Of a DNA stretch of 64,000 bases, positions 6 to 17,649 are shown one piece after another. A program made the position numbers and the translations under genes. Source of the DNA: Dictyostelium discoideum (lineage: Eukaryota); contig CM000151.3 of NCBI GenBank assembly GCA_000004695.1, positions 5,984,001 to 6,048,000 on the forward strand, given 5' to 3'. The notes under the pieces were generated by a model that was not told the DNA's origin, searched no databases, and saw only the letters and a program-made list of their open reading frames with translations. Within the stretch, counting starts at the first letter, position 1; each line of letters starts with the position of its first letter.

Positions 6-503
6 TATTCTTTAACTGGAAGTAGATTAGCTGCTGCCATTGGAATTGATCGATACACTTCACAACATGATATAAAATTAATATTGGCGAAAAAGAAAAC
101 CCCATTCTTTAGTGACTACTGTAAAAAGGCAATGGGACATGGAAAACACCAAGAACCAAAAGCAAGAGAATTTTATTTTAATGAATTGGAGACTTCAATT
201 ATCGAAAAGGGTATCTTTCCATTGCCAGGCGACAAAAGAATTGGATGTTCTCCTGATAGGGTAATTTACACAACAGTACCTGGTAAAGATGGAGTTTTAC
301 AGCGTGAAGGAGTTATTGAAATTAAATGTCCACTATCTGCCACGAACTTCAGTGGCCTAAAGAATGGTAGAAAACCTGATGCCTTAGCTAATGCTCAGAA
401 AATACCTCTAGATTACATTCCACAAATATTTGCAAACATGGCATGTACTGGGGCACAATGGTGTGATTATATATGTTGGGTTCCAGGTGGTATACTTTTG
501 TAG
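6..503 (+). CDS. YqaJ-like viral-recombinase/PD-(D/E)XK exonuclease domain protein, 5'-partial (open from nt 6; window edge, probable upstream exon)
   Basis: In-frame translation from nt 6 is YSLTGSRLAAAIGIDRY...GCSPDRV...GVIEIKCP...IPLDYIPQIFANMACTGAQWCDYICWVP. This matches the YqaJ/lambda-exo family motifs (iTaSxxaai.G, SPDG, ExK-CP, IPxxYxxQvQxQMxvTG..cDf). No ATG start is present: the track ORF 84..503 starts at TTG. All three frames are closed before nt 6, and nt 1-5 (agtag) could be an intron acceptor. Codon usage is GC-richer (GGC, CGT, GCC, CTA) than surrounding host genes. Confidence 0.5.
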   Translation, partial: YSLTGSRLAAAIGIDRYTSQHDIKLILAKKKTPFFSDYCKKAMGHGKHQEPKAREFYFNELETSIIEKGIFPLPGDKRIGCSPDRVIYTTVPGKDGVLQREGVIEIKCPLSATNFSGLKNGRKPDALANAQKIPLDYIPQIFANMACTGAQWCDYICWVPGGILL

Positions 504-699: not shown

Positions 700-1125
700 A
701 AAAATAAAAAAAATAATTTCTAATGGCTTATAATAATAATTCTTTTATTTTAAAATAATAAAAAATAGAAAAAGTTTTAAAAAAAAATAATAAAAAAAAA
801 AATTCTAATGGCTTTTATAAAGATTATTTTAAAATTGAAAAAAATAAAAAAATTTAAATTTGTAAACTGATTAATGTTACACTATTAATGTCTTCGAAAT
901 ATCTATTGAATTTTCTAAAGATATTTGAAGGTTTCAGAGAAACAGTTTTTTAGGAATAATTAATGATTTTTTCTAATGGTTTTTCTAATGATTTTCAGTA
1001 TAATGATTTTTAAGATAATAAAAAATTGATTTTTTTTTGGGGTTTTGGGGAAAAGATATTTATTGGAGAATATTTCCTAGTTTCTTTATAATCATTTTAC
1101 AAAAAAAAATTTTCTAACGGTTTGA
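700..1125. repeat. Dispersed array of motif (A)TTCTAATGGYTT (about 5 copies near 717, 808, 974, 986, 1113), plus two degenerate ~45-bp direct units beginning GGGGTTTTGGGG.../GGGGTTTAGGTG...
   Basis: Read directly from the sequence. The motif copies are each embedded in A/T-rich spacer downstream of the YqaJ ORF. Confidence 0.4.
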
Positions 1126-1631
1126 TTATAATCATCATGGGGTTTAGGTGAAAAGAAATTTATTAGGGAATGTTTTGTTTTTCAATTCATTTTCAAAAAT
1201 ATATAAATAATGGTTAATGTAAATTTTTGTAAGGTACCAAGAGGAAAGAATGGAGAAAATGTTAAAGTATGTCTATTCATATAGTTAAAAAAAAATATAA
1301 ATTTATTAAATATAAATATAAATTAACATCATTTTTTTCTTATTTTTTTTATAGGTTCTTAATAATGATTATTTGACAATCATACAGTTTAAAATTAAAA
1401 AATTGTTTTAAACCATCACTTTTTTTGAACACATGAAAATAAATAAGAAATAAAAATAAAAAGATAAAAAAAGATTTTTTTTTTTTTTTTTATTTTATAA
1501 TTATTCTTGTCGTCAGTATTGTTACTATAATTAATCCCATGAGTTTTTTTTATTATTATTTTTAATTCTTTTATATTTGAGATGATTATTATTAATTAAA
1601 TGACTTTGAGTTTTTTTTTTTATTTTTCTAT

Positions 1632-1805
1632 GCCCAAAATTACCATATTAATTTCGGCAGCCATATTAATTTCAGCCTAAAATAGTTGGTCTGTGCATGC
1701 CAAAATAATATGGCTGCTGAAATTAATATGGTATTACTAGCAGACATAAGTCCCATGCCAAAACTATCATATTAATTTCAGCAGCCATATTAATTTTGGC
1801 ATGGG
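1632..1805. repeat. Structured repeat cluster: three ~45-bp units in forward / inverted / forward orientation, each containing two copies of CCATATTAATTTC and flanked by CATGCCAAAA / TTTTGGCATG arms
   Basis: Unit 1 is 1632-1678 (gcccaaaattaccatattaatttcggcagccatattaatttcagcc). Unit 2 is 1696-1738 and is its reverse complement (catgccaaaataatatggctgctgaaattaatatggta). Unit 3 is 1755-1805 (catgccaaaactatcatattaatttcagcagccatattaattttggcatg). The 13-mer CCATATTAATTTC occurs about 6 times in both orientations. Confidence 0.7.
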
Positions 1806-2057
1806 ACATTCCATCGATTTAAATTTTTCTAAAGTTTTTTTATTTTTTTATTTAATTAATTATTTATTTTTTTATCTTTGTAAAGCAATGACTGATTTTG
1901 ATATTAGTGATTCAGAAGAAAAAGATATTAGAAAAAATGATGTAAAAGTAAGAAAAAAAATTGAAAAAAAAATTAACACCAATGGTGCACCTGATGACCA
2001 ATTTGTCATTACATAAAAACAAAAATGAATAAATGGTGGCAACAATGTGTCCCTTAA

Positions 2058-2825
2058 AAGTATATTTTTGAAGAGTGGTCGCCACATATAATTCAAAAAA
2101 TCTTTGATAGAAATAAGGCCATTATTGATGCTGGTTTACAAAAATATACCGATACTAGAATTCTCTTTATTTTAGATGATATTATTGGTGAAGATAGTTT
2201 TAAAAACGATGAAGTTTTAAAAAATGTTTTTATTTTGGGTCGTCATTATCATGTTGGATTTATGATATTAACACAGTATGCTTATGCTCTTCATCCATTG
2301 GTTAGAGGTAACACTGATTATGTTTTAACCACACTTCAATCACAAAATCGTCAAAGGGAAGCCATTGCAAAGGATTATGCTGATATTGTTGATAGAAATG
2401 CATTTTATGAACTTTTGGATAAAAATACTACCGATAATCATCTATTGGTTATCGATTTATCAAAGCCAACCATTAATGTCGATGATGTTTTCTCTCGTTT
2501 CAAAGCTGATAATCCAGGGCCATTTAGGGTGGGATCAGAAAAATGCTGGGATAAACATGAAAAACAAATTCAAATGATATATAATAAAGTTAGATTGGAA
2601 ATGGGTTGGTATTCAGAAGAAGATCAAGAGATAAGAAAGAAAAAATTTAAAAAAAAACTTGAAAAACATGAAAAAAAAGAAAAAGAAGTTGAAGTAAATA
2701 TTGAAAAACTTCCAAAATCAATAGAGAAAAAAAATGAAAGTAATGAAGAAGACAATGAAAAAAATCAAATAAATTTTTTAATTTTAATTTTTTTTTTTTT
2801 TTTTTTTTTTATAATCTTTTATTGA
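2058..2825 (+). pseudogene. FtsK-HerA / poxvirus-A32-like DNA-packaging ATPase, C-terminal fragment (Walker B and sensor region present, Walker A region absent)
   Basis: Frame-3 translation after the stop at 2055-2057 gives ...RILFILDDIIGEDSFKNDEVLKNVFILGRHYHVGFMILTQYAYALHPLVRGNTDYV.... This carries the hhhhDD Walker B, the GRHxxxS...TQ sensor and the Arg/Asn-Tyr motifs typical of A32-like packaging ATPases of NCLDV, Polintons and virophages. No GxxGxGK(T/S) occurs in any frame between 1801 and 2057. Confidence 0.45.
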
Positions 2826-3189
2826 TTTCTTTAATGTTTGTTAAAAGTTTTTCTTGAGTTCCAAAAAATGTGAGATAAAATGGGACCCCAAAATTTGGAT
2901 CACCTCTAAATATAGAACTAACACCATTCCCAATGAGAAGTGTTAAACATACACCCATCGATAGCTGAAGGCTCGATGATAAAAGTAAATCATTAGTTGA
3001 TGTTTGATTGATTTTATATCGATAATCTCTCAATAAATCATTTTCCATTATAACATGTAAACTACTATCACCTTTCTTTGGTTCTAAAACATATTTATCG
3101 AATGATTCATCGAGTTTATGGCCAACATATGACCCAATTAATGCTTGTGCTAATCCATGAGAAATTGCTGTAATTACTTCATTAGCCAT
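2809..3189 (-). CDS. hypothetical protein, member 1 (3'-most) of a compact collinear minus-strand ORF cluster
   Basis: ORF of 126 aa (MANEVITAISHGLAQALIGSY...). It starts 8 nt downstream of the stop of the preceding ORF (tagaaaaaaaaATG). Composition is coding-like and GC-richer than host genes. No family recognised. Confidence 0.3.
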   Translation of the reverse strand: MANEVITAISHGLAQALIGSYVGHKLDESFDKYVLEPKKGDSSLHVIMENDLLRDYRYKINQTSTNDLLLSSSLQLSMGVCLTLLIGNGVSSIFRGDPNFGVPFYLTFFGTQEKLLTNIKEINKRL

Positions 3190-3197
3190 TTTTTTTT

Positions 3198-3524
3198 CTA
3201 AAGACCTGTTTTAATATTTGTTCCAATGGATGGTGGTTTTTCTATGTAAATTAGAATATGTTGTCCATGGGCTAACATTACTTCATATTGATTTTCCAAT
3301 GAATGATTGTTGTCGTGAATTTTTTTAACGCTTCTAACTATTAATGCATCACCCGATAAAGTGTGTAATTCATTTTCTCTAATCCACGATTTTGCTGTGG
3401 GATCTAAAGCAATTGTTTTTTTAACATGTGATTCAATTTTATCATGATGATGGTCGTCTGATATTGAAATGAATTGACTATAAATAATTCCAGCTGCTAT
3501 TCCTCCTAATAAATAATAGTTCAT
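3198..3524 (-). CDS. hypothetical protein with N-terminal hydrophobic segment, cluster member 2
   Basis: ORF of 108 aa (MNYYLLGGIAAGIIYSQF...HHHD...). Its ATG lies 4 nt after the stop of the 3529..3726 ORF (taaaaaaaATG). Confidence 0.3.
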   Translation of the reverse strand: MNYYLLGGIAAGIIYSQFISISDDHHHDKIESHVKKTIALDPTAKSWIRENELHTLSGDALIVRSVKKIHDNNHSLENQYEVMLAHGQHILIYIEKPPSIGTNIKTGL

Positions 3525-3528
3525 TTTT

Positions 3529-3726
3529 TTATTTCTTTTTATTTAAAATATCCTTTAGTTTTTCTTCATTTAATTGAATTTGAGATTTTATTTCTTCATC
3601 GGTCTCTTTTCTTTTTTGGGATCTTTCTCTGCTATTCACTTCATTGGTCATCCTAATGGTTTCAGCAATAGCAGCCACCGTTCTTAAAATAACTGGTGTA
3701 CGACCAATATCATACTTTATAACCAA
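3529..3726 (-). CDS. hypothetical small basic protein, cluster member 3
   Basis: ORF of 65 aa (MVIKYDIGRTPVILRTVAAIAETIRMTNE...). It sits immediately upstream of member 2. Confidence 0.25.
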   Translation of the reverse strand: MVIKYDIGRTPVILRTVAAIAETIRMTNEVNSRERSQKRKETDEEIKSQIQLNEEKLKDILNKKK

Positions 3727-3882
3727 CTCTTGGAATGTATCTTTAAAAAAATAAAACCTTAATTGGTTTTGTTTTATTTTGTGTAATAATCTTTATTTTT
3801 TTATTTTTTTTATTTATTTTTTTTTTATTTTTTTTATTTATTCTTATTTTTGCAATGATCTTTATTTTTTATTATTTTCTTT

Positions 3883-4230
3883 TTATTTTTCTTCTTTTTT
3901 TGTTGGGATATCTGTTCTTTTTCGTGTACCAGGAAAATTAAGATCCAAAATATTGATGGTAAAGAAATCTTGAATATTTTTATCTTGAACTAAATGATCC
4001 TCACCAATATAGTAGTTTAATACATCTCTGAATTGAAAAGGAGGTAAGGAACCATCTTCGTTAACTTTGAGTGATTGATAAAGTATTGATGCAGTTTTAT
4101 ACATTTCAAGTCTTTCTACTACTTCCTTGATACATTCTGCTGTACAATTTTTCCCAAATTCAAATTCCAATAAGTTATCATATTGAAAAAGGTTTTCAGT
4201 AAAATTTGGGTGGTGGTGGTTACGGTTCAT
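3883..4230 (-). CDS. hypothetical protein, cluster member 4
   Basis: ORF of 115 aa (MNRNHHHPNFTENLFQYDNLLEFEFGKNCTAECIKEVVERLEMYK...). Its sequence is not low-complexity. Confidence 0.3.
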   Translation of the reverse strand: MNRNHHHPNFTENLFQYDNLLEFEFGKNCTAECIKEVVERLEMYKTASILYQSLKVNEDGSLPPFQFRDVLNYYIGEDHLVQDKNIQDFFTINILDLNFPGTRKRTDIPTKKEEK

Positions 4231-4258
4231 TTTTTTTTCTCTGTGTCAAAAATGAAAA

Positions 4259-4525
4259 TTATTTGTGTGAATTAAAAATAAAAATAAAAACAAAAATATA
4301 AAAAAAAAAAAATAAAAAAAAAAAATTGAAAAAAAAGGTCAACCCATGAGGAGCCATATTCCCGAAAACAAAGTATACCCCATTCCCATTAAAATGATTA
4401 ACTCTGGGCCAGACACCATTGGCGTTTTTTCTAATGAACATAATATCGTTAAACCATTGCGTGTTTGGAGTTATAGAATTGTCGTTGATAATACCAACAT
4501 AGTGATGTGAGTTACAGGAATTCAC
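4259..4525 (-). CDS. hypothetical ORF, cluster member 5 (5'-most); C-terminal part runs into a poly-F/low-complexity tract and may be truncated or a pseudogene
   Basis: ORF MNSCNSHHYVGIINDNSITPNTQWFNDIMFIRKNANGVWPRVNHFNGNGVYFVFGNMAPHG..., on the same strand as and 28 bp from member 4. Confidence 0.2.
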   Translation of the reverse strand: MNSCNSHHYVGIINDNSITPNTQWFNDIMFIRKNANGVWPRVNHFNGNGVYFVFGNMAPHGLTFFFNFFFLFFFFYIFVFIFIFNSHK

Positions 4526-4845
4526 AAAAAAAAAAGGATCAATAAAATAATTTTTAATAAAATTTTCATTTGGAGATAGTTATTTATATGAAGTATAATA
4601 TAATAAAAATAAAAAAATAAAAAAAATTTATACAAAAATAAAATGGTGAGAAAAATATTAATGTTTTTGAGTAAATTAGGTAAAAATTAAAAAATAATTT
4701 TTTTTATTTATTATTTTTTTTTTTTAATTTACAAATTTATTTATTATTTATTTATAATTTCTCACTTAAAAAATTAAGTAGTCATTGTTATTATTATTTT
4801 TTTTATTTTTTTTTTATTTTTATTTATTATTTTTTTTATTTTTTT

Positions 4846-5271
4846 TTGTTTTTATTTATTTTTTTTTTTATTTTTTTTTTGCTGTATATCGGTAAAGCAT
4901 CCCATCAAGAAGGAAGGGGTTTGTACAACAGAGGTTACACAGATCTAACTGGTGGCTCAAGGAGATGGGGGAATCCAAATTCAGACCCACCAGAAATGGC
5001 AAATGCTGAAGTTTTAATGTATTATAGAGGTTTTGATGGTCCAGTTGCTGGTCATGCTGAGTGGTGGTTCCTTTCAGTATTTGGGTGTCCAGAAAATAGT
5101 TTCAACGAGGGTGGTTTAAGGACATCTGAACACAGTTATGGCGCAGGTCAATGGAATTTTTTCCATGCAAATGCTCCCCCAGTTAATGTTCGTCAATATA
5201 TTATAAATCAAGATCCATCCCCCGGTTTTTTTTTAGATTTCAAAACTATCCATCTGCTCCAAGTATTATAA
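4846..5271 (+). CDS. hypothetical protein (GC-richer ORF; possible upstream start or exon unclear, internal ATG at 4996)
   Basis: ORF ...GKASHQEGRGLYNRGYTDLTGGSRRWGNPNSDPPEMANAEVLMYYRGFDGPVAGHAEWWFLSVFGCPENSFNEGGLRTSEHSYGAGQWNFFHANAPPVNV.... It uses many GC-rich codons that are unusual for Dictyostelium. Confidence 0.3.
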   Translation: MFLFIFFFIFFLLYIGKASHQEGRGLYNRGYTDLTGGSRRWGNPNSDPPEMANAEVLMYYRGFDGPVAGHAEWWFLSVFGCPENSFNEGGLRTSEHSYGAGQWNFFHANAPPVNVRQYIINQDPSPGFFLDFKTIHLLQVL

Positions 5272-5348
5272 GAAGAATTGTTGAATGTGAAACTGAACGA
5301 TTACACGCTGAAGGTCTTTCAGTTAAAGTTCCTGGTCTTCAAAATCAA

Positions 5349-6095
5349 GTGGTACATTTTCAAAATCAAGTGGTAAATCTTCAAAATGCAAACGAACTAT
5401 TGACAAACTATAATGCTTATTTGGCTGCAGCTCTTCTTAATGCTATGCCTCAGATTCCAAATCTAGATGGTTTTCTACCAGTATACGGTCCTGGGTTGGA
5501 AGTTTCAAGTGAAGCTATTCGTAATTGGAATGAAGCAAGAAAAAATGGCGGTGGTGGTATTGGTGGTGGTATCGGTGGCGGTGGTATTGGTGGTATTGGT
5601 GGTATCGGTGGGGTAGATGATGGTAAAAAGGGTGATGGTAAAAGAGGTTCAGGTGGTGCGGATGGTGCACATGATGGTTGGTTAAAATCTGGCTGTATTT
5701 GTCCAGAAACTCCTCCTTGTCCAGTAGTAATTCCATGTCCAGAGCCAGTGGTTTGTAATATAGCAAAAATTCAAATTCAATTGAATTCAACCATAAAAAG
5801 TTTGGATGAATGCAAAAAACAAAAGGACCAAACCAATGATAACCTCAACGTCTGCAAGTCCCATAAAGATGAGACACAAGATTGGCTCACCGACTGTCAA
5901 AAAGAATATGTTAAACAAACAAGTCATTCATCCAAAGATGATACTCTAATTTCTCTCAGAAACTGCCAAGCCGAATACCAAAAAGAAACATTCAAAAAAG
6001 ATAAGCTCTGCCGTGGTTTGTCCAAACATATCATTGGTTATCTCGATTTCTGTGAAGATAAGGTAGAAAAGCTCAAACTCGCTAATTGTGAATAG
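5349..6095 (+). CDS. hypothetical Gly-rich (GGGIGGG repeats) and Cys-rich protein; frame is open upstream to about 5222, so it may be spliced or frameshifted to the 4846 ORF
   Basis: ORF MVHFQNQVVNLQ...GGGGIGGGIGGGGIGGIGGIGG...CICPETPPCPVVIPCPEPVVC...CQKEY...CQAEY.... It starts at GTG in the track. The same frame continues upstream (…RIVECETERLHAEGLSVKVPGLQNQ). Confidence 0.3.
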   Translation: MVHFQNQVVNLQNANELLTNYNAYLAAALLNAMPQIPNLDGFLPVYGPGLEVSSEAIRNWNEARKNGGGGIGGGIGGGGIGGIGGIGGVDDGKKGDGKRGSGGADGAHDGWLKSGCICPETPPCPVVIPCPEPVVCNIAKIQIQLNSTIKSLDECKKQKDQTNDNLNVCKSHKDETQDWLTDCQKEYVKQTSHSSKDDTLISLRNCQAEYQKETFKKDKLCRGLSKHIIGYLDFCEDKVEKLKLANCE

Positions 6096-6518
6096 TTTTC
6101 TCATTTTTAAAAAAAAAAAAAAACAAAAAAAAAAAAATCATATAATGGTTTCCTTTATGAAATCAATAAAAAAATTCTTTAAATAAAATTTTTAATCTTA
6201 TTTTAAAAAAATTCTTTTAATGAAATCCATTATTTTCATTTTTTATAATTTTATTGAACTTTATTGAAAATAATTAGATATTGTTATTTCCAATGGTTTT
6301 AGATTGATAACGGTATAGATGTGACCATTAAATAGAAAACTATTAAAAATTGAGCCAAAGAAAAATCAACGATTTTTAATGGTTGTTTAAAGATTTCCTA
6401 TAGAAAATTTAAAATGATTTTTTTAAAAATATTTCAAAACCAATGTCATAAAATAAAAATTCTCAATTACTAAATATAAACATGTATAGATCATTAGGTT
6501 TATTTTTAAAAAAAAACG

Positions 6519-6773
6519 ATGGGTGCCCGTCAAAAAAAAGAAATTGAAGCAGATCCTGAAAGGGTAAAATTAATAAAAATTAAAAAAACACAAAAAAGAT
6601 TGGCCGAACAAGAAGAAAGAAGAAGGTTGATGCAAGAAGAAAGTGAAAGAAGACGATTGCAAAGACTTAGAGAAAAACAAGAGCCAATTAGAACCTTTGC
6701 AACTGCACAAGAAGCTCAACGATATATACCCAAACCTGGTAACTTTGCACGTAAAAGAGGTGCTAGAAATTAA
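6519..6773 (+). CDS. small basic charged (K/R/E-rich) protein, hypothetical
   Basis: ATG-initiated 84-aa ORF MGARQKKEIEADPERVKLIKIKKTQKRLAEQEERRRLMQEESERRRLQRLREK.... It uses the typical Dictyostelium AAA/GAA-rich codons. Confidence 0.35.
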   Translation: MGARQKKEIEADPERVKLIKIKKTQKRLAEQEERRRLMQEESERRRLQRLREKQEPIRTFATAQEAQRYIPKPGNFARKRGARN

Positions 6774-6846
6774 AAAAGAAAAAAGAAAAATAATTGAAAG
6801 AAATAAAAAAAAAAAAATTAAAAATTAAAAAAAAAATAAACTACAT

Positions 6847-6900
6847 CTCTTATATAAGAGGTGGCAATAGATAATAAAAGTACAATTAGAATTATTTTTT
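6847..6900 (-). pseudogene. 5' fragment of the small Cys-rich secreted-protein gene (truncated copy)
   Basis: The reverse complement encodes MKKIILIVLLLSIATS..., matching the N-termini of the 10199..10444 and 13672..13920 ORFs. Similarity stops at 6850. Confidence 0.5.
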
Positions 6901-7741
6901 TCATTTTTATTATATTTGTTTTTTTTTATTATTATTAAAAATTTGAAAAATAGATATTGGTATAATATTTAAATTATAAAAGTAAATAAAATTTTAAAAA
7001 GTATTTATATTAAAAAAAAAAAAAGAAAATTTTATTAGAAAAAATAAAAAAAAAAATAAAAATAGTTATTAATTATTAAAAAAAAAAAATTTGAAAAGTA
7101 AAGGTGCACCCATCTTAAAAACAAAAAAGGATGACTACATCGATCTTTTATTCCATAATTGTTATTTGAATATGACGACAAAAATTTTAAGCACCTATTG
7201 TAAATCAAAGAAAAAAATAAAAATAATTTTAAAAAGGTAACTTGCCAATACATAGATTTTATACCAATTTTTTAAAATATTTGAGAAAAATATTTATAAT
7301 TTATGAATTCCATTGGTTATTTTAAAATTAAAAAAAGTAAAATAATCTATAGATTTTACAGATAATTTTTAAAACCATGTGCAATTTAGTGTGTGGGTGA
7401 AAAAAATAAATTTAGATTTAACAAAAAAAAAAAAATTAAAAAAAAAAATAAATAAATAAATGAAAAAAATAAAATAGGAACTGGTTTAAATTGTTAAAAG
7501 TCATAATGATAAAAAATGTCAACTTGTGAAATAACAAGTGGTAATTGTAGGAATTTTCCATTGATTTTAGCAGTTGATTGTGCAATAATTATTCCAAATA
7601 CTAATTTTATTCATTCATTTTTAATTTATTCCTTGAGAATTTAAGTTCTAATTCAAAAAAATAATTTATTTTTAATTATATTTATTAATTGAGAATTTAA
7701 ACTAACTACATTTATAGTTATATTTTAATTTTTTTAGTGTC

Positions 7742-7776
<35 letters not shown>

Positions 7777-9401
7777 TAATTATTTATTTTTTATTATTTA
7801 TTTGTATTAATTTAATGAATTAATATTTTATTTATTCATTGCCAAATTAAATAAATAAAATTACATTTAGAGTTATAATTTAATATTAATATTAAAATGT
7901 TTTTTTTTAAACCTAATTTCAAGTGGGGTTAACTTTTTTTTTTTTCATTTTTTATATTTTATTTTTTAAGTTTATATGTTTCATGTAAAATCAAAAAGGG
8001 ATTTTTTAACCCCTAATTTCACCCTTGAAAAAAACACTTAATAAATTTAATAATATTTGGCAATAAAAATAAATAAAATGTATTCTTTGTTCATTAATTA
8101 ATAATATTTATGAAGTGCAATATTTAATTATGTGCTTTTTAAAATTTTGAGGGAAAAAATTAGACAATTTTAAAAAACTAAGTAAACTTAAAAAAATTAA
8201 GTAAACTTAAACTATTATATATATATTTTTTTTTTTTTTTTTTTTTTTTATTTTTTTTGATATTTAAATAAAAAATTTTGTTATTAAAAATATATCAAAC
8301 TATAATAATAATCAATATTTTAGATATTTAAAAATGTGTTTTGGGTAAATATTATTTAAAAAAAAAAAAAGAAAAAAAAAAAAAAAATTTTAATATTTAC
8401 AATTAAATAATATTTTTAGGGATGCTGATAAAATTGCAACAAAAGAAACTGTAAAATTGGTTGAAAAAATCATTGATGTTAAAAAAGAAGAATTTTTAAA
8501 AAATCAAAAAATTTTATCTGAATTTATGAATAAAGGATATGGATTAATATTAAAAAATGATTTCAAATGTTCAAGTATGGTAATGGGTATCGGAAGTAGT
8601 GGTTGTGGAAAATCAACAACTCTCAATTTGATGCATGGAAATAACTTTGTAACTGGAAAGGATTGTGGTGATGTTACTATGCAACTTTCAATACCAACTC
8701 CTTCTGTAAAATATCCAAATACTAAAGTAATTGATTGTGTTGGCTTTACTCCAAGTCTTTCAAGTTTTTGCAAATTAATTTTAATTTATTTCCAACGTGG
8801 ATTTTTTCCAGATTATTTTCTATATCCATCATCAAATGATAGAACTGAACAAATTGTCACACTCTATAGAATGATTAGAATGGATTATGTCAAAATAATG
8901 GTTGTCCCATTCTCTGCAAAAAACTATCATTCAAATATTGAATTAATAAAAGAAATTGACCCAACAATGTCAGAATCAGAGGTAGATACAAAGTCATTAA
9001 AAAAAGCTTTTAATAGTGATATGGTATCACATATTATTGAAAAATTGGCTGAAATTAAATTAAAAAATGATGAAACCCTTAAAGGAAAGGTTATAGTTGT
9101 TGAATCTCTTGATAAAGTTCCAGAAGTAATTGGTTCAATGAAAACAATGTTTTTAAATGAATTCTTTATTGGTGGTAAATTTATAGATTCAATAACCTAT
9201 GAACAATTTTGTGAAAATTCTTCAGATGATGATCCTCAATCAACAAAAATATTTTTGTATGGCCTTTTAGTTGATGCTATGAAAACTTTATCATCATTTG
9301 CCAAGTATGATAATAATGGCGTATTGATAGGAATCGAAGAACAAAAATTCTTAAAAGACAATTAAAATGGAATCAAAATAAATCCCAACAACAAATTACC
9401 A

Positions 9402-9437
<36 letters not shown>

Positions 9438-9568
9438 TTTAATTTTAGCTCAATCATTTTAAAAATATTAAAAAATTAAAAAAACTAAATGAATATTAGA
9501 AAATAAATCAATAAATAAATAAATTTTATGAAATAATAAAGTATTATAATTTAATATTATAGAATATG

Positions 9569-9599
<31 letters not shown>

Positions 9600-9990
9600 G
9601 TTCCTCTTTTATTTATTGAAGTATCAGATAATTATTAAACATATCTAAATATAACCTTTTCCAATGGGAATCATTCAGCTCGTTTGGTGGTTTAGGTCAA
9701 CTCAGAGAAAAAAAAAAATTTTATTTTTTAAATTTTATTTAATTTTTAAAAATTGTCTGCAAATTAGACTTTGGAAGATTTATTCAAAATTTTCTTTTTT
9801 TTTCAGATCAAAAATTTTATTTTGAATTTTGAAATTTAATTGGATTTTTGTTCAAGTAAAAGTAACTTATTTTATTCACTACCAATTTATATGTTATTGT
9901 GATAATCCTAAATAACAACAATTCATGAAAGAGAAAAAAAATTATTAAAAATAAAAATAAGTGCCTATCAGATAACTAATCAAAAAATTA
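6850..9990. repeat. Segmental duplication copy 1 (5'-truncated) of a ~3.5-kb tandem unit
   Basis: 6847-6900 matches the 5' end of the Cys-rich gene at 10375-10445. Spacer blocks (aaaggtgcacccatcttaaaaacaaaa..., gaattccattggttatttt, aaccatgtgcaatttagtgtgtgggtg) are shared with 10650-10980 and 14140-14410. The lsm6 segment is mostly deleted. The P-loop gene is intact. Confidence 0.7.
8334..9365 (+). CDS. P-loop GTPase-like protein (G1 GIGSSGCGKST, candidate G3 DCVG). Exons: 8334..8344 (ATGTGTTTTGG, tentative) and 8420..9365
   Basis: Exon 2 begins right after a ...tatttttag acceptor at 8419. A GTAAAT donor follows ATG TGT TTT GG at 8345. Both features are conserved in the pseudogene copy at about 12456/12544. 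The Walker A motif is in-frame. Confidence 0.5.
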
Positions 9991-10198
9991 TTTGGGAAAA
10001 CACACAAAAATAAATTAAAAAATTATATTATATGATAAACTTATTTTATTGTTAATGGATTTAATAATTAAATAAATAAATTCAAAGGGGGAGGGTTGTT
10101 GTTGAATATAATAATTTAGATAATTAGATAAATTGAATTTTGAGTATAGTTAGAAAGACCAAATAAATTAAAATTCAATTATCAATTGATTTCTATGT

Positions 10199-10444
10199 TT
10201 AATTATGAACTGCAGGTGATTGAGTTGGGGGATCAACTATAGGGAAGATACAGTTATATAAACATGTACCCAATGCTTCTGAACAAACTTCGAGTGGTAC
10301 TGAGATATCTGGCGAGTCAAAACCGGCAACACATAATTGGTAACTTTCTTTGCAAGTTTGTTTACATACGGTATTGAAAATTGAACAAAATGCTCCAGAG
10401 GTGGCAATTGATAATAAAAGTACAATGAGAATTATTTTATTCAT
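10199..10444 (-). CDS. small secreted Cys-rich protein (signal peptide + 8 Cys), paralog A
   Basis: 81 aa: MNKIILIVLLLSIATSGAFCSIFNTVCKQTCKESYQLCVAGFDSPDISVPLEVCSEALGTCLYNCIFP.... It has a hydrophobic N-terminus and a conserved Cys spacing shared with paralog B. Confidence 0.55.
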   Translation of the reverse strand: MNKIILIVLLLSIATSGAFCSIFNTVCKQTCKESYQLCVAGFDSPDISVPLEVCSEALGTCLYNCIFPIVDPPTQSPAVHN

Positions 10445-11007
10445 TTTTGTTTTATTTGTTTTTTTTTTAAAAATTAGAAAATTGAATGATAGAAATTAGT
10501 ATAATATTTAAATTAAATTATAAAATAAAAAAAATTTTAAAAAATATTTATATTGAAAAAAAAAAAAGGTAATTAAAATTATAAAAATTAAAATTAAAAA
10601 TAGATAAAGTTATTTATTATTAAAAAAAAAAAAAAAAAAAATTTGAATTGTAAAGGTGCGCCCATCTTGAAAACAAAAGAAGATGAGCGATTCGATTTGT
10701 TATTCCATAATTGTTAAGAATATGATGCCAATAATTTTAAGCCCCTATTGTTAACTGAACAAAGAAAAAAAAAATTATGATAATGGGTATAAAATGTAAT
10801 TTTAATAAGGCAACTTGCCAAAACTTACATTTTATACCCATTTTTTAAAATAATATTTATAATTTATGAATTCCATTGGTTATTTTAAAATAAAAAAAGT
10901 AAAATAAAATATAAATATAATTATAGATTATACAGATATTTTTTAAAACCATGTGCAATTTGGTGGGTGGTGAAAAAAAATATTAGATTTAAAAAAAAAA
11001 AAAATAA

Positions 11008-11038
<31 letters not shown>

Positions 11039-11459
11039 CGATTAAAAAAAAAAATTATTTATTATTTCTTTTTTATTGGGCTATTAATATTTATTTTGGG
11101 AATTTAAAAAAAAAAATTTTAAAAAAAAAATAATAAAAAAAAAATTGGTTTCTATTCAAAGTAATACACATTCTCAATTCCTTTTATTAATAACAGTTAA
11201 AAAAACTTTAATATATGCAAAGCGATACACATTCGCAATTCCTTTTATTAATAACTGTTAAAAAAAAAACCATGCTATATTAATATATTATTATTATTTT
11301 AAAATAAAAATCAACATATAGTAATATTGAGTAATTAAAATAGCTGAAATAGTAGATTCACATAAAAAATTTATTTATAATCTCCACGCACACATACATA
11401 TATACCCATGTATAGCCACTCGCTTTTTATAAATAAATTAATAAATTAATATTGAAAAA

Positions 11460-11700
11460 ATGTCCACTACCACAGCCACCAGTAATACATCAAATAATAG
11501 TAATGCACAATTTAACTTTATTTAAAATGTTGATTGGAAGACCAGTCTTTGTTAAATTAACCAATGCTGTTTAATATAGGGGTATTTTGGAAGTAATATG
11601 AACATTATAATGGAACACATACTGAGGAATATACCTTTATGTGCAATTAAAAGCTAAATATGGTAAACTTGTGAAATAGCAAGTAGTGACGGTGGTAATT
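11460..11700 (+). pseudogene. lsm6 pseudogene (copy-2 version of the LSm6 first exon, disrupted)
   Basis: It opens ATGTCCACTACCACAGCCACCAGTAATACATCAAATAATAGTAATGCACAATTTAACTTTATTTAA, with a premature stop. Downstream matches to lsm6 exon 1 (…ggtattttggaagtaatatgaacatt…aaatatggtaaacttgtgaaatagcaagt) contain indels. Confidence 0.55.
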
Positions 11701-11915
11701 ATCTTTTGATTTTAGCAGTTGATGGTGTGTCATAATTATTCCAATATTGATCTAATTAATTTTTTAATCTTCGAGAATTTAATTCAAATTCAAATTCAAA
11801 AAAAGAATTCATTTTTTATTTTATTTATAAATTGAGAATTTAAATAAATTCTAATTACATTTTGAGTTTTAGTATAATTTTTTTCAATATTATTATTAGT
11901 GACCAATTAAAATAT

Positions 11916-11959
<44 letters not shown>

Positions 11960-12468
11960 CAAATTTTTTTTTTGTATCAAATTATATATTTGTATTAATT
12001 AAATGAATTCATTTTTTTATTAATTTGTTGAGAATTTAAATTAATTATTTTTTGAGTTATAATTAAATTTTTTTATTTATTATTAAAAACTTAATAAATT
12101 TAATAATATTTGTTAACTTAAATATCATTACTAAAACTAATAAATTGGTTTTACCTAAGGAAACAAAAATTTTACAAGATGTTTCCTTTTTTTTTTTAAT
12201 ACATTTGATGTAAAATCATGGTTTTTTTTTTTTTTTTTTTAAACCTAATATTTTAATTATTTTTAAGTTAACAAATATTATTAAATTTATTAAGTCCTTT
12301 TTAAAAAATTAAATAAACTTAAACTATTATAATAATTTTTTTTATTTTTATTTGGCTTTAAAATTAAAATTTGTTATTTAAATTAAAAATTATTATTATT
12401 AAAAATACACGAACAATAAAAAATAATATAAACAAATTTTAGATTTAAAAAAATGTGTTTTGGATAAT

Positions 12469-12544: not shown

Positions 12545-13150
12545 GGGATGCTGATAAGATTGCGACTAATGAAACTGATAAATTGGTTACAAAAATCATT
12601 GATGTAAAAAAAGAAGAATTTTTAAAATATCAAAATATTCTACAGAATTTATGAACAGAGGATTTCTATTAATTTCAAAAAATGATTTCAAATGTTTAAG
12701 TATGGTAATGGGAGTTGGAAATAGTGGTTGTGGTAAATCAACAACTCTTTCATTTGATACATGGAAATAAATTTTACTCCAAATCTTTCAAATTTTTGTA
12801 AATTAATTTTAATTTTTCTCCACCGTGGATTTTTTCCAGATTATTTTCTATATCCATCATCAAATGTTAGAATTGAACAAATTTCCACTCTATATAGAAT
12901 GGTTAGAATGGATTATGTCAAAATCATGGTTGTCCCATTCTCTGCAAATAATTATTATTCAAATATGGAATTTATAAAAGAATTGGACTCAACAATTCCA
13001 GAATTAGTATATAAAAAATCAGTAAAAAAAGCTAGAAGTGATATGATATCACATATTTATGAAGAATGATGTAGTTCCAGAAGTAATTAACCTATGATAA
13101 AAATGGAGTATTGGCTGGAATTGATGAACTAAGATGCTTAAAAGACAATT
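12545..13150 (+). pseudogene. P-loop GTPase-like pseudogene (copy-2 version of the 8334..9365 gene)
   Basis: It is collinear with 8420-9365. A stop follows the Walker A region (…GVGNSGCGKSTTLSFDTWK*). It carries several deletions relative to the intact gene, and an expanded (AAT)n tract follows it. Confidence 0.6.
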
Positions 13151-13183
13151 AAACATTTTATTTAAACAGCAATTAATATTAAA

Positions 13184-13222
<39 letters not shown>

Positions 13223-13231
13223 TATAATAAC

Positions 13232-13278
<47 letters not shown>

Positions 13279-13300
13279 TAATAATAATAATAATAATAAT
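13184..13300. repeat. (AAT)n microsatellite, expanded in copy 2 of the tandem unit (the copy-1 counterpart at 9404-9436 is about 33 bp)
   Basis: Read directly from the sequence. Confidence 0.9.
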
Positions 13301-13350
13301 ATAATCCAATTAATTAATTTTAGCTCAATTATTTCAAAAAAATAAATTAA

Positions 13351-13920: not shown

Positions 13921-14935
13921 TTTTTATTTATTTGGTTTTTTTTTTTTTTTTTTTTTTAACTAGAAAATTGAATGATAGAAAAAATTAAATTAAATTATAA
14001 TATTTAAATTAAATTATTAAATAAATAAAAAAAAAAATTTTTAAAAAGTATTTATATAAAAAAAAAAAAAAAAGTAATTAAAATTAGAAAAATTAAAATT
14101 AAAAATAGATAAAGTTATTATTAAAAAATTTTGAAAAGTAAAGGTGAACCCATAATGAAAACAAAAGAAGATGAGCGATTACTATGATGCCAATAATTTT
14201 AAGCACCTATTGAAAACTGAGCAAAGAAAAAAAATAATAAAAATAAAAATAATTATAAAATGCAACTTACCAATACTCACATTTTATACCCATTTTTTAA
14301 AATAATATTTATAACTTATGAATTCCATTGGTTATTTTTTAAATAAAAAAAAATATATATATAATGAGATTATACAGATATTTTTCTAAAACCATGTGCA
14401 ATTAAGTGTGAGGAGGAAAAAAAAATTAAGATTTTAAAAAAAAAAAAACGATTAAAAAAAAAAAATAATAAAATTTATTTATTATTTCTTTTTAATTGGA
14501 CTATTAATATAATTTATTTTGGAAATTTGAAAAATGAAAAAATGAAAAAAAAAAAAAAAATAAAAAAAAAATTAAAAAAAAAAAAATTAAAAAAAAAAAA
14601 AAATTTTCATAAAATTGTGATCTATTCAAAGCAATACACATCCGCAATCCCTTTTATTAATTAAACGGTTTAAAATAAAACAACTTGTTATTTAAATATT
14701 ACTATATTAATATATTATTATATTTAAAAATAAATATCAACATATAGTAATTTTGAATAATTAAAATATACCCAAAATAGTCTATTCACATAAAACATTT
14801 ATTCATAATCTCCACCCCACACACACATATTTATATATATATATAGCCACCCACTTTTAATAAATTAATAAATATATTAATAAATAAATAAATACACAAT
14901 AAATAAATTAATAAATTAATAAATTATATGAAAAA

Positions 14936-15189
14936 ATGACCACTACCACCACAACCAGTAATACATCAAACAATAGTAATGCACAATTTAACTTTTTTAA
15001 AATGTGTATTGGAAGACCAGTCGTTGTTAAATTAAACAATGGTGTTGAATATAGGGGTATTTTAGAAGTAGTAGATGGTAATATGAACATTGTAATGGAG
15101 CAAACTGAGGAATATCTTAATGGGCAATTAAAAACTAAATATGGTGATTGCTTTTTAAGAGGAAATAATGGTATGGTTTTATTATTGAC

Positions 15190-15226
<37 letters not shown>

Positions 15227-15307
15227 TTTAACCATTCATAAACTAACTTTATTTATTTATCTATTATAAATACAGTATTATATATTTCAGCTCAACCAAG
15301 AAAATAA
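14936..15307 (+). CDS. lsm6: U6 snRNA-associated Sm-like protein LSm6. Exons: 14936..15170 and 15276..15307 (intron 15171..15275, GTATGG...TACAG, contains (TTA)n)
   Basis: Exon 1 encodes ...FFKMCIGRPVVVKLNNGVEYRGILEVVDGNMNIVMEQTEEYLNGQLKTKYGDCFLRGNN. Splicing adds VLYISAQPRK*. This is near-collinear with human LSm6 (…IGRPVVVKLNSGVDYRGVLACLDGYMNIALEQTEEYVNGQLKNKYGDAFIRGNNVLYIS…). There is an N-terminal poly-Thr extension. Confidence 0.8.
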
Positions 15308-15508
15308 TAATTTATTAATTAAAACAAATAAAATAATTATAATCTTTTTGTAAAAAAAAAAAAATAAAAAAAAATAAAAAAAAAAAAACAAAACAAAGAA
15401 CAAAAAACAAAACTATTTTTATCTTTAATATCAAAATTTATTTTTATTTGATAAAATGTTTTAAAAATTATAATTTTGGAACTTAACGCGATGGGTGAAA
15501 AGAAACCA

Positions 15509-15539
<31 letters not shown>

Positions 15540-16210
15540 CAGAAATTATAATTTTGGAATTAAACACTATAGGGATTAAAATAAGAAATCGAATTTTTTT
15601 TTTTTTAAGAATTATAGTTTATTAAGAAATTGATCTACTAAAAACACAAAAAATCAATAGTTTTTTTTTGGTTCCCACAAACTATACATAAGATTTTTTT
15701 TTTTTTTTTTTGGGTGGGAATCAAATTTTGAAAAACTTGATTATTTTTTTTTTTTTTTTTAGATTTGAACGAATATTAAATTATTTTTGAATGATTGAGA
15801 ATGTATTTTCTTTCCAACACGCTTAAGTGAAGGAGAAGATTTGAAAATAAAAAATAAAGTTTGATGTGAATTATATGAACGAAATTTGGCGATGATATTG
15901 ATGAGGTTGTTGAAGAATTGATTTTAAAATATTATTACAAATGATTATTTTTTGGAAAGTGATTTTTAAAAGAAAAAAAGGAAAGAAGAGAAAAAAAAAA
16001 GAAACACAATAATAATAAATTAAAAAAAATAATGATAATTGATCGAGATGATATATGTAATTAAATTGAATTATTACCATATATTTATCCAAACATTTTT
16101 TCATTTTTTTTTTATATTATTATTGTTATTTCATTTTTTTTTTCCCCTTTTTTGAATTATTCCACCCCAATTTCTTTGTAAAATTTCCATTATAAATTAT
16201 TATTATTATT

Positions 16211-17649
16211 TTAAAATTCAACAACTGGAATTGCAGCGACTTCCATTAACTTTGAAGACAAGTATTTCTTTCTTGTGGCTTTAAGGTTAGAGGTGTCAGC
16301 TCTCTTTCTAACTTCTTTGAGTTCTTGAGCACATTGTAAGATTTCAGACTCCTTGTAACAAGTGTAATATTCAAGTGTTACATTCCAGTATGGACCAGAC
16401 TTCATGGTCATACGACGAGCGACATAGATTGAAGCGGCGGCAATCATTGATGGAACGAATTGAACCATTCTGTATTCAACCATTGAGAGTTCAGAGAGGT
16501 ATTTACTGAGTGAATGAGTACGAGAGTCTGATCCAGCAGCCTTTGAGAAACGACGTAAAAAGTGTAAAGGAGTGGCGACAGACATGTGGAATTGCAAAGT
16601 TGAGAGGATTTGTCTTTCCATGTCGATAACCTCGGCGTGGGTGCAGGCATCATCGGATGTATGAACGAAATCCTTGATTTGTGGACTGTAGATCTCTTCA
16701 TATTTACAAGCTAACAAAATGGCGGTAATACCAACCAATTGGAGTTTAGTGACTGGAATCATTACTTTAGCGAGATAACGATCGACGATATTGACAGAGA
16801 GGAAGAAAGTTTCAGATAACAACTTGAAACGGACATGAACAGCCATCATCCAATCGACGAGGATTGCACGCATACGTTCATTGATATGGTATTGATTCTT
16901 TATATAGTCTTTGTCAATCTTATCGATTTGCTCCTTCTCACGGTAGTATGCGAAAATTTCATTAACATATTCACCAACACATTGTGGATCGTGGCTATCA
17001 TAGATATCGATATTCTCTGGTACCTCTGTAATGTCAATGACCATTTGTTCCTCTTGAATCATATTGGTATCGTTATCAACATCGTCAATCATAACTGGTT
17101 GTTGGGGAATATTATTCATCATTTCCATTGATTGAATATCTCTCTTTTGTACTTTATTTACTGGTCCATTGGCATTTGGTAAAACTCCACTAATTAATGC
17201 TGAATTACGTAAACTTGCACCATTATCAATAATTGATTTTGATCTTGTAATAATGTTATTTCTAGTATTTGTTGGTTGTGGCTTTTAAGAGAGAATTTGT
17301 CAGAGAGCAAGAGGGAGGAGATGGAAGGAAAAAAAAAAAAAAAAAAATTTGGAAAATTAATAAAAATTATTTTTATAATTAAATGATGATAGAAAATTAA
17401 AATACATACCATAATAATATTATTATTTGACAATTGTACAGTTTTAGTTGCCATTCCAGTTGTTTGATGTGTATTATTTGTTAAATCAGAAAGGGCACCT
17501 CTGTGTGATTTTAATCCAGTTGTACCACCAATTTTCTTATCCATACCAATTGATGATTTTGGTACTTTGTTTTCATCCATAATCATACCTCCACCCATTG
17601 ATGAATGTGATCTTGTTTTAATATTTAGAGGGTTATTAATTGTTGACAT
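16211..17649 (-). CDS. cycB: Cyclin B (mitotic cyclin). Exons: 17649..17410 and 17281..16211 (intron GTATGT...AG, 17409..17282); predicted 436 aa
   Basis: Exon 1 carries the destruction box RGALSDLTN (RxALxxLxN). Exon 2 carries the cyclin box (MRAILVDWMMAVHVRFKLLSETFFLSVNIVDRYL...) and the C-terminal cyclin fold. Both junctions agree with the frames of ORF-track ORFs 17194..17649 and 16211..17128. Confidence 0.9.

Follow-up and report, generated by a model that had tools for sequence, protein, structure and literature searches.

The window, i.e. the whole 64-kb stretch of Dictyostelium discoideum DNA analysed here, has a G+C content of 22% and carries, near its left end, two gene remnants that match the AX4 proteins DDB_G0275905 and DDB_G0275725, the accessions of which are consecutive and which belong to chromosome 2. 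As the initial annotation had placed it, a triplet repeat block lies between these two fragments. The 62 kb to the right of the block consist mostly of host genes, which include a cyclin, a DEAD helicase, a Kelch protein, a glycosyl hydrolase 2, a SpoU methylase, Leg1 and an ankyrin/C1 protein; tRNA genes were not found in the window. The gene remnants, the insert that carries the block and the three units of the block are as follows.

6-503, plus strand: YqaJ-type exonuclease ORF fragment, DDB_G0275905 (Pfam PF09588, E 2.6e-33)
1210-1374, plus strand: retained 5' end of the 566-aa gene of the surrounding element, directly upstream of the insert (exon 1, 1210-1266; intron, 1267-1354; then the first 20 nt of exon 2)
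1375-1808, no strand assigned: 434-bp insert without counterpart in the intact element, replacing ~9 kb (895-9925 of the intact copy L001)
1630-1677, plus strand: unit U1, ATGCCCAAAATTA-CCATATTAATTTC-GGCAG-CCATATTAATTTC-AGCC
1696-1742, minus strand: unit U2, the inverted copy and the middle arm common to both hairpins
1754-1803, plus strand: unit U3, closed by CATGCCAAAA...TTTTGGCATG
1888-2825, plus strand: Pox_A32-type packaging ATPase remnant, DDB_G0275725

The initial annotation had described three near-identical units within 175 bp, the middle one being the reverse complement of the other two, and this layout was confirmed. In an alignment of U1, U2 and U3 (~50 bp each), a 31-nt core, TAyCATATTAATTTCrGCAGCCATATTA(A)TTT, is almost invariant. 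A repeat search returned the direct pair 1634-1672 / 1758-1796 (92%) as well as the inverted pairs 1641-1672 / 1702-1733 (32 nt, 94%) and 1702-1742 / 1756-1796 (41 nt, 85%). Two copies of the 13-mer CCATATTAATTTC had been claimed for each unit and are seen, spaced by 18 nt, in U1, U2 and U3 if 0-2 mismatches are allowed: the 13-mer is exact at 1643 (+), 1661 (+) and 1719 (-), has one mismatch at 1767 and 1785, and has two mismatches at 1701 (-). Moreover, CATGCCAAAA occurs exactly at 1696 (+), 1754 (+) and 1794-1803 (-). The arms that had been described for all units hold for U2 and U3, the ends of which are CATGCCAAAA and TTTTGGCATG; by contrast, U1 has ATGCCCAAAA in place of CATGCCAAAA and lacks the closing TTTTGGCATG.

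Outside the block, CCATATTAATTTC and CATGCCAAAA gave just chance-level matches with 1-2 mismatches in the 64-kb window. When exact inverted 12-mers with at least 4 G/C and at most 200 nt apart were counted, 13 of the 20 in the window were located inside the block, and the remaining long inverted repeats of the window are poly-A/poly-T. The triplet block is the sole complex inverted repeat of the 64-kb window.

The initial annotation had predicted that adjacent units form long hairpins, and folding of the region as RNA and as DNA bore this out for both U1/U2 and U2/U3. As RNA, 1620-1815 folded with -70.7 kcal/mol on the plus strand and -76.6 kcal/mol on the minus strand (z about -8.5), and every dinucleotide shuffle was weaker; as DNA, the same region folded with -44.7 kcal/mol (z -8.9), and again every shuffle was weaker. 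U2 is able to pair with either U1 or U3, giving two alternative hairpins:

1641-1733, plus strand: hairpin A (U1 x U2), -47.4 kcal/mol within 1628-1747, z -7.8
1696-1803, plus strand: hairpin B (U2 x U3), -60.2 kcal/mol within 1690-1810, z -12.4

The stems of these hairpins are 31-43 bp long and nearly perfect. With z from -7.8 to -12.4, the observed energy was reached by no shuffle for either hairpin; for hairpin B (1690-1810), none of 200 shuffles was as stable, in agreement with the stable stem-loop of the Rfam family RF03716. The minus strand of both hairpins folds similarly, and U3 alone gives a small hairpin (-22.9 / -26.6 kcal/mol).

In a scan of the whole window at the gathering threshold, RF03716 (mir-7131) was the only Rfam family matched. 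The match covers 1705-1793 and spans positions 1-84 of the 84 model positions, with a stem sequence near-identical to the family consensus; on both strands its score (86.3 bits on the minus and 85.6 bits on the plus strand) exceeds the gathering score of 74, the whole model being matched in each case. We take this Rfam family to be miRBase ddi-mir-7131a-d of Avesson et al. 2012; the string 'mir-7131' itself did not occur in the searchable papers or supplements. The orthologous locus L006, from another D. discoideum strain, has identical block DNA and the same RF03716 match.

The block also contains the sequences of two small RNAs, AUUAAUUUCGGCAGCCAUAUU and UAUGGCUGCUGAAAUUAAUGUGG, that were cloned from D. 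discoideum by Meier et al. 2016 (PMC4894637), who credit the first report to Avesson et al. 2012. Their sites in the block, and a third related site, are the following.

1647-1667, plus strand: exact copy of AUUAAUUUCGGCAGCCAUAUU (miRNA_can_D3-3p / D3*; Meier et al. 2016)
1709-1731, plus strand: copy of UAUGGCUGCUGAAAUUAAUGUGG (miRNA_can_D3-5p), identical except for an A in place of the G at 1728
1771-1791, plus strand: U3 counterpart of the 21-mer, ATTAATTTCAGCAGCCATATT, which pairs with 1707-1727 in hairpin B

The 21-mer and 23-mer sites are spaced by 62 nt and have the same strand and order as published: each of the six positions in S4 Table of Meier et al. has the 21-mer 63 nt upstream of the 23-mer, with both on one strand (PMC4894637). 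Table 2 of the same paper calls UAUGGCUG... 5p and AUUAAUUUCGG... 3p, and these labels conflict with the S4 Table coordinates, in which AUUAAUUUCGG... is located 63 nt upstream on the same strand (PMC4894637). Meier et al. describe the small-RNA locus as multicopy and located in the transposon thug-S, for which they give the six genomic positions, and place it in an 'intron', i.e. in the interior of the element (PMC4894637). The suggestion of the initial annotation that the unit is a multicopy, transposon-annotated repeat was therefore substantiated by these six thug-S positions, and its counter-scenario, in which the unit is absent elsewhere, does not hold. The present copy is not among the six because it has A instead of G at 1728 and its loop is shorter by 1 nt. 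The chromosome 2 positions 2783137 (-) and 3248649 (+) of S4 Table are mirror images in the AX4 chromosome-2 inverted duplication. The six positions would amount to five independent loci, and the present window would add another. The coordinates of the duplication are presumably those of dictyBase, which give 3768654-(2783137-2263132)=3248649. As for thug-S, it is said to have been described as a DNA transposon by Glockner et al. in 2001.

Both small-RNA sequences of Meier et al. 2016 are contained in hairpin A (PMC4894637 Table 2, S4 Table). Hairpin A is the arrangement implied by the coordinates of Meier et al., and hairpin B is the Rfam precursor. The three-unit layout, in which the middle arm U2 is common to both hairpins, thus explains why two different precursor hairpins have been published for the same small RNAs. 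In the predicted stem of hairpin A, 1709 pairs with 1665, and the 21-mer, which ends at 1667, therefore protrudes by 2 nt at its 3' end; the 23-nt isoform leaves 4 nt at one end of the predicted stem. In the predicted stem of hairpin B, the duplex of 1709-1729 with 1771-1791 has an overhang of 2 nt at either end. On the predicted hairpins, the published sequences thus form the 5p/3p duplex with 2-nt 3' overhangs that is expected of a miRNA. Sequence identity with Rfam and with the cloned RNAs, the two hairpins and the Dicer-like duplex geometry are all observed at the present copy itself.

AX4 keeps only decayed fragments of the element that surrounds the block, annotated as the hypothetical genes DDB_G0275905 and DDB_G0275725. 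Four intact copies of this element (L001-L004) are present on one contig of D. cf. discoideum (GCA_054859205.1, JBTAPH010000036.1, with intact sequence around 1.49-1.52, 1.57-1.60 and 2.18-2.21 Mb) and are 99% identical over 13-20 kb, and a truncated copy (L005) is present in a D. discoideum strain. The intact element is >21 kb long, with its ends beyond the sequence covered, and its genes are arranged in the order YqaJ, 566 aa, 443 aa, 232 aa, GRF zinc ribbon, DUF5906/VapE-type S3H primase-helicase, 362 aa, 133 aa, A32 ATPase, 126 aa, 260 aa and further genes. The full-length ATPase has 362 aa and matches Pfam Pox_A32 (PF04665) with 29.6 bits (cut-off 22.8); D. dimigraforme has a close homolog. 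In the window copy, a ~190-bp deletion between 1988 and 2015 has removed the Walker A region of the ATPase and left Walker B (ILFILDD). Among the ten ORFs of L003, no capsid was found by Pfam or PHROGs; one protein of the element has a weak match to Integrase_H2C2 (E 4e-4). We found no description of the intact element in the literature.

L003 encodes two further proteins without a Pfam or PHROGs match. One is a 187-aa ORF at 12771-13334 (-) with the sequence FHLTINT...HSHTLIE, which by eye resembles an HUH-endonuclease motif; the other is a 467-aa ORF at 14892-16295 (+) with five ~28-aa repeats of the form DT(H/K/N)G(I/V)xF..G(I/V)xL and a beta-rich tail, reminiscent of a fibre protein. Moreover, D. 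cf. discoideum has a YqaJ protein that is only 48% identical (P0016), encoded on another contig, of 58 kb, and A32-type ATPases that are 48-52% identical are present in Acytostelium subglobosum and other samples (P0004-P0007). This divergent YqaJ protein and the A32 ATPases suggest a wider family of such elements in dictyostelids.

The window aligns with L001 in three segments, i.e. 839-1374 with 1-894 (88-92% identity), 1809-1988 with 9926-10101 (95.6%) and 2015-3746 with 10294-12085 (94.7%), and with L006 at 99.97% identity over 10.5 kb. Between the first and the second segment lies the 434-bp insert, in which AT-rich filler (1375-1629) precedes the hairpin block at the right end; the left part of the insert (1375-1640) gave low-complexity matches only. 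The left junction (...GATTATTT/GACAATC...) falls within exon 2 of the 566-aa gene, after its first 20 nt, and the right junction (1808/1809) reads ...GGCATGGGACA/TTCCATCG..., also written as ...TTTTGGCATGGGACA/TTCCATCG; the right edge of the block is 5 bp from this homology breakpoint. The two ends of the insert, GACAATCATAC... and ...GGCATGGGACA, bear no relation to each other; terminal inverted repeats are missing, and a comparison of 1374/1375 with 1808/1809 gave no target-site duplication. From the junction sequences, Helitron-type and TIR-type ends of the insert were rejected. We conclude that the hairpin block is non-ancestral to the surrounding element and lies where a decayed copy has lost 9 kb from its interior.

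To the right of the ATPase/126-aa block, 3745-6941 is a rearranged mosaic with one piece inverted. Its pieces lie upstream of YqaJ in L010, L020, L012, L007, L008 and L009, and in L020 a 390-aa gene model joins one mosaic-type piece to YqaJ. A non-coding direct repeat of 1.3 kb (97.9%) is present at 6857-8181 of the window and at 8173-9495 of L006, i.e. 1.9-0.6 kb to the left of the start of the window; its copies are ~8.8 kb apart and bracket the whole mosaic of element fragments. This repeat was not seen in the other loci, and diverged copies (77-81%) lie nearby.

Among 14 Dictyostelium loci collected via the flanking YqaJ and ATPase proteins, the block was found only in the ortholog L006. 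It was detected neither in the 13-21 kb covered of each of the intact copies L001-L004, the outer ends of which are outside the coverage, nor in the truncated L005, nor in the YqaJ-linked relic loci L007-L012, L020 and L021, nor in the 10 kb upstream of YqaJ at L010; likewise, a second block was found neither in the window nor in the 10 kb upstream at L006. The 21-mer had no match in viral contigs. In metagenome contigs, seven single 21-mer matches were rejected as chance matches; four are in one conserved bacterial gene, and none of the seven has an inverted partner.

These observations bear on the functions that the initial annotation had assigned to the block. As a transposon terminus or subterminal array, the block would end a mobile segment, and its 13-mers would bind a transposase or recombinase. 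Consistent with such a role, the block is confined to the far right of the 434-bp insert, with the breakpoint 5 bp after TTTTGGCATG, the 13-mers are found at intervals of 18 nt in either orientation, and the multicopy unit is filed in the literature under the DNA transposon thug-S. However, the right end of the insert has no inverted copy at the left end (GACAATCATACAG...), neither edge has a TIR or a target-site duplication, and the matching inverted terminus that had been expected upstream was found neither in the window nor in the 10 kb upstream at L006, where a second block is also missing. Moreover, L007-L012, L020, L021, the intact L001-L004 and the truncated L005 lack the block in the parts covered, and Meier et al. 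place it in the interior of thug-S (PMC4894637). We therefore regard a terminus as improbable.

Still less can be said for an iteron-type replication origin or a hairpin telomere of a virus-like element that supplied the YqaJ and ATPase genes. The repeated 13-mers adjoin AT-rich DNA, a D5/VapE-type S3H primase-helicase is among the products of the element family, and the DNA could in principle extrude a cruciform. By contrast, the block is missing from the covered 13-21 kb of four copies that are 99% identical, from the truncated L005 and from the 10 kb at L010; thus, it is neither the origin of the intact copies nor, in the parts covered, their end. Moreover, the helicase gene is deleted in the window copy, and the block is chromosome-internal, with 11.7 kb to its left given by L006 and 62 kb to its right in the window, where ordinary host genes follow. 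Finally, a different repeat, TTCTAAYGGYTT, is present in 4-7 copies downstream of YqaJ and is shared with the intact copies. A telomere is excluded by the chromosome-internal location; the origin or telomere reading as a whole is largely refuted, and we consider the chance that it applies to be very slight. The TTCTAAYGGYTT direct-repeat cluster is itself intergenic, with five copies at 718-1123 (+) of the window and 4-7 copies at about 30-450 in each of L001-L004; being conserved between the relic and the intact copies, it may serve the element as a regulatory or origin-type repeat.

In total, we conclude that the triplet is very probably one genomic copy of the D. discoideum thug-S / mir-7131 small-RNA hairpin module. 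The feature is, accordingly, already known as a published, Rfam-curated family, to which it adds a further copy; that the block belongs to thug-S rests on the statement by Meier et al. (PMC4894637).

The plus strand is favoured as the strand of the small-RNA precursor because it has one mismatch in total to the two cloned RNAs and the minus strand has three; the flanking gene remnants, too, are encoded on the plus strand. The RF03716 scores are near equal on both strands, and the choice of strand rests on the mismatch counts. In the mechanism that we propose for the thug-S / mir-7131 module, the region would be transcribed, most likely from the plus strand. The promoter may be the retained 5' end of the 566-aa gene of the element, with a candidate site near 1170-1210, or a T-run inside the insert. 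The start codon of the 566-aa gene is kept upstream of the insert, and its retained 5' end is a possible source of read-through transcription. In the transcript, U2 would pair with U1 to form hairpin A or with U3 to form hairpin B, and DrnB, the Dicer-like enzyme of the nucleus, would then cut the long near-perfect stem in concert with RbdB, a dsRNA-binding protein. The predicted products are 21-23-nt duplexes from the CCATATTAATTTC-NGCAG-CCATATT core.

T-runs followed by G are present at 1475-1491 and 1611-1631, i.e. ~140 nt and ~16 nt upstream of the first small-RNA site. A T-run/G start-site motif has been described for other Dictyostelium pri-miRNAs (Liao et al. 2018). The resemblance is weak, and T-runs are common in the D. 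discoideum genome.

Expression, partial dependence on RbdB and accumulation in agnA- cells are known from the literature at the level of the family. Meier et al. reported reads in AX2 / rbdB- / agnA- of 68 / 3.3 / 186 and of 47 / 26 / 370 for the two small RNAs (PMC4894637); such reads map to more than one copy. These counts would fit processing by the DrnB/RbdB microprocessor, one arm of the family being only about half RbdB-dependent. Northern signals were weak, and clear only in the agnA- and rrpC- strains. The miRNA status of the D3 small RNAs is soft.

The same mechanism, with a different view of its products, underlies the reading of the small RNAs as an endo-siRNA by-product. Here, the hairpin would be an accidental structure within a decayed mobile element, any transcript reading through it would fold and be diced, and the small RNAs would have no selected function and no regulatory target; this reading and the one that we prefer differ only on the function of the products. 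The long, nearly perfect stems of 31-43 bp are more hairpin-RNA/siRNA-like than miRNA-like, the hairpin module is multicopy and transposon-associated, and the small RNAs are of low abundance, with higher levels in the Argonaute mutant agnA-. Moreover, no complementary site with at most four mismatches was found outside the block in the window and ~0.23 Mb of Dictyostelium loci (~0.29 Mb in total). The literature itself is inconsistent in the label, since the text of Meier et al. calls the RNAs non-canonical ('miRNA-like_D3') and their Table 2 calls them canonical (PMC4894637), and Liao et al. left these loci out of their miRNA analyses. On the other hand, repeated cloning recovered defined species of 21 and 23 nt that have duplex geometry, one arm depends strongly on RbdB (68 to 3.3), and, in the account that Meier et al. 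give of Avesson et al. 2012, the RNAs came mostly from the 16-h and 24-h developmental libraries (PMC4894637). On balance, a by-product is a serious contender to which we would grant somewhat less than an even chance. For the D3 RNAs, the main question is therefore their significance, i.e. whether they are bona fide miRNAs or hairpin-derived siRNAs, rather than the mechanism.

In a broader reading, the hairpin module was later captured at the deletion junction of the relic of the >21-kb element, and its RNAs act in trans, either in the silencing of the element family by the host or in the regulation of host genes; taken as a whole, this combination is unlikely. If it is true, DDB_G0275905, DDB_G0275725 and possibly the thug repeats are relics of endogenous virus-like DNA. 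The window copy lies at an internal deletion junction, and its recently amplified intact relatives in D. cf. discoideum lack the hairpin in the parts covered; these hairpin-free relatives bear on the nature of the 'thug' repeats and of the two hypothetical AX4 genes. As a rediscovery of a published small-RNA locus, the block is of less interest than its element context.

Among the known systems close to the module, which is very probably a thug-S / mir-7131 copy, is RF03716 itself: hairpin B (1705-1793) fits 84 of the 84 model positions with a nearly consensus stem and differs in the apical region, which here is AUUACUAGCAGACAUAAGUCccaUGCCAAAACUAU with a 3-nt insertion. In addition, the RF03716 model is a single hairpin, whereas the present locus adds the third unit U1 as an alternative partner. 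The likeness to miRNA_can_D3 / 'miRNA-like_D3' extends to an identical 21-mer, a 23-mer with one mismatch, the order and spacing of the two and hairpin A; the present copy is set apart by the A at 1728, the loop shortened by 1 nt and a location outside the six listed positions. With transposon-derived hairpin loci, the block shares a repeat-borne inverted duplication that gives a long near-perfect hairpin in multiple copies. In such loci, e.g. the MITE-derived miRNA genes of plants and human mir-548 from Made1, repeat-borne hairpins are cut by Dicer. A MITE, however, has two terminal inverted repeats, whereas here a triplet shares its middle arm and is embedded in the relic of a large virus-like element. 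That element, in turn, resembles Polinton-like viruses and Mavericks in that it encodes a Pox_A32-type ATPase, an S3H primase-helicase (DUF5906/VapE), a YqaJ nuclease and a GRF zinc-ribbon protein and is multicopy in a protist genome; it differs from them in that, in the element as covered without its ends, no capsid, protein-primed polymerase or rve integrase was identified.
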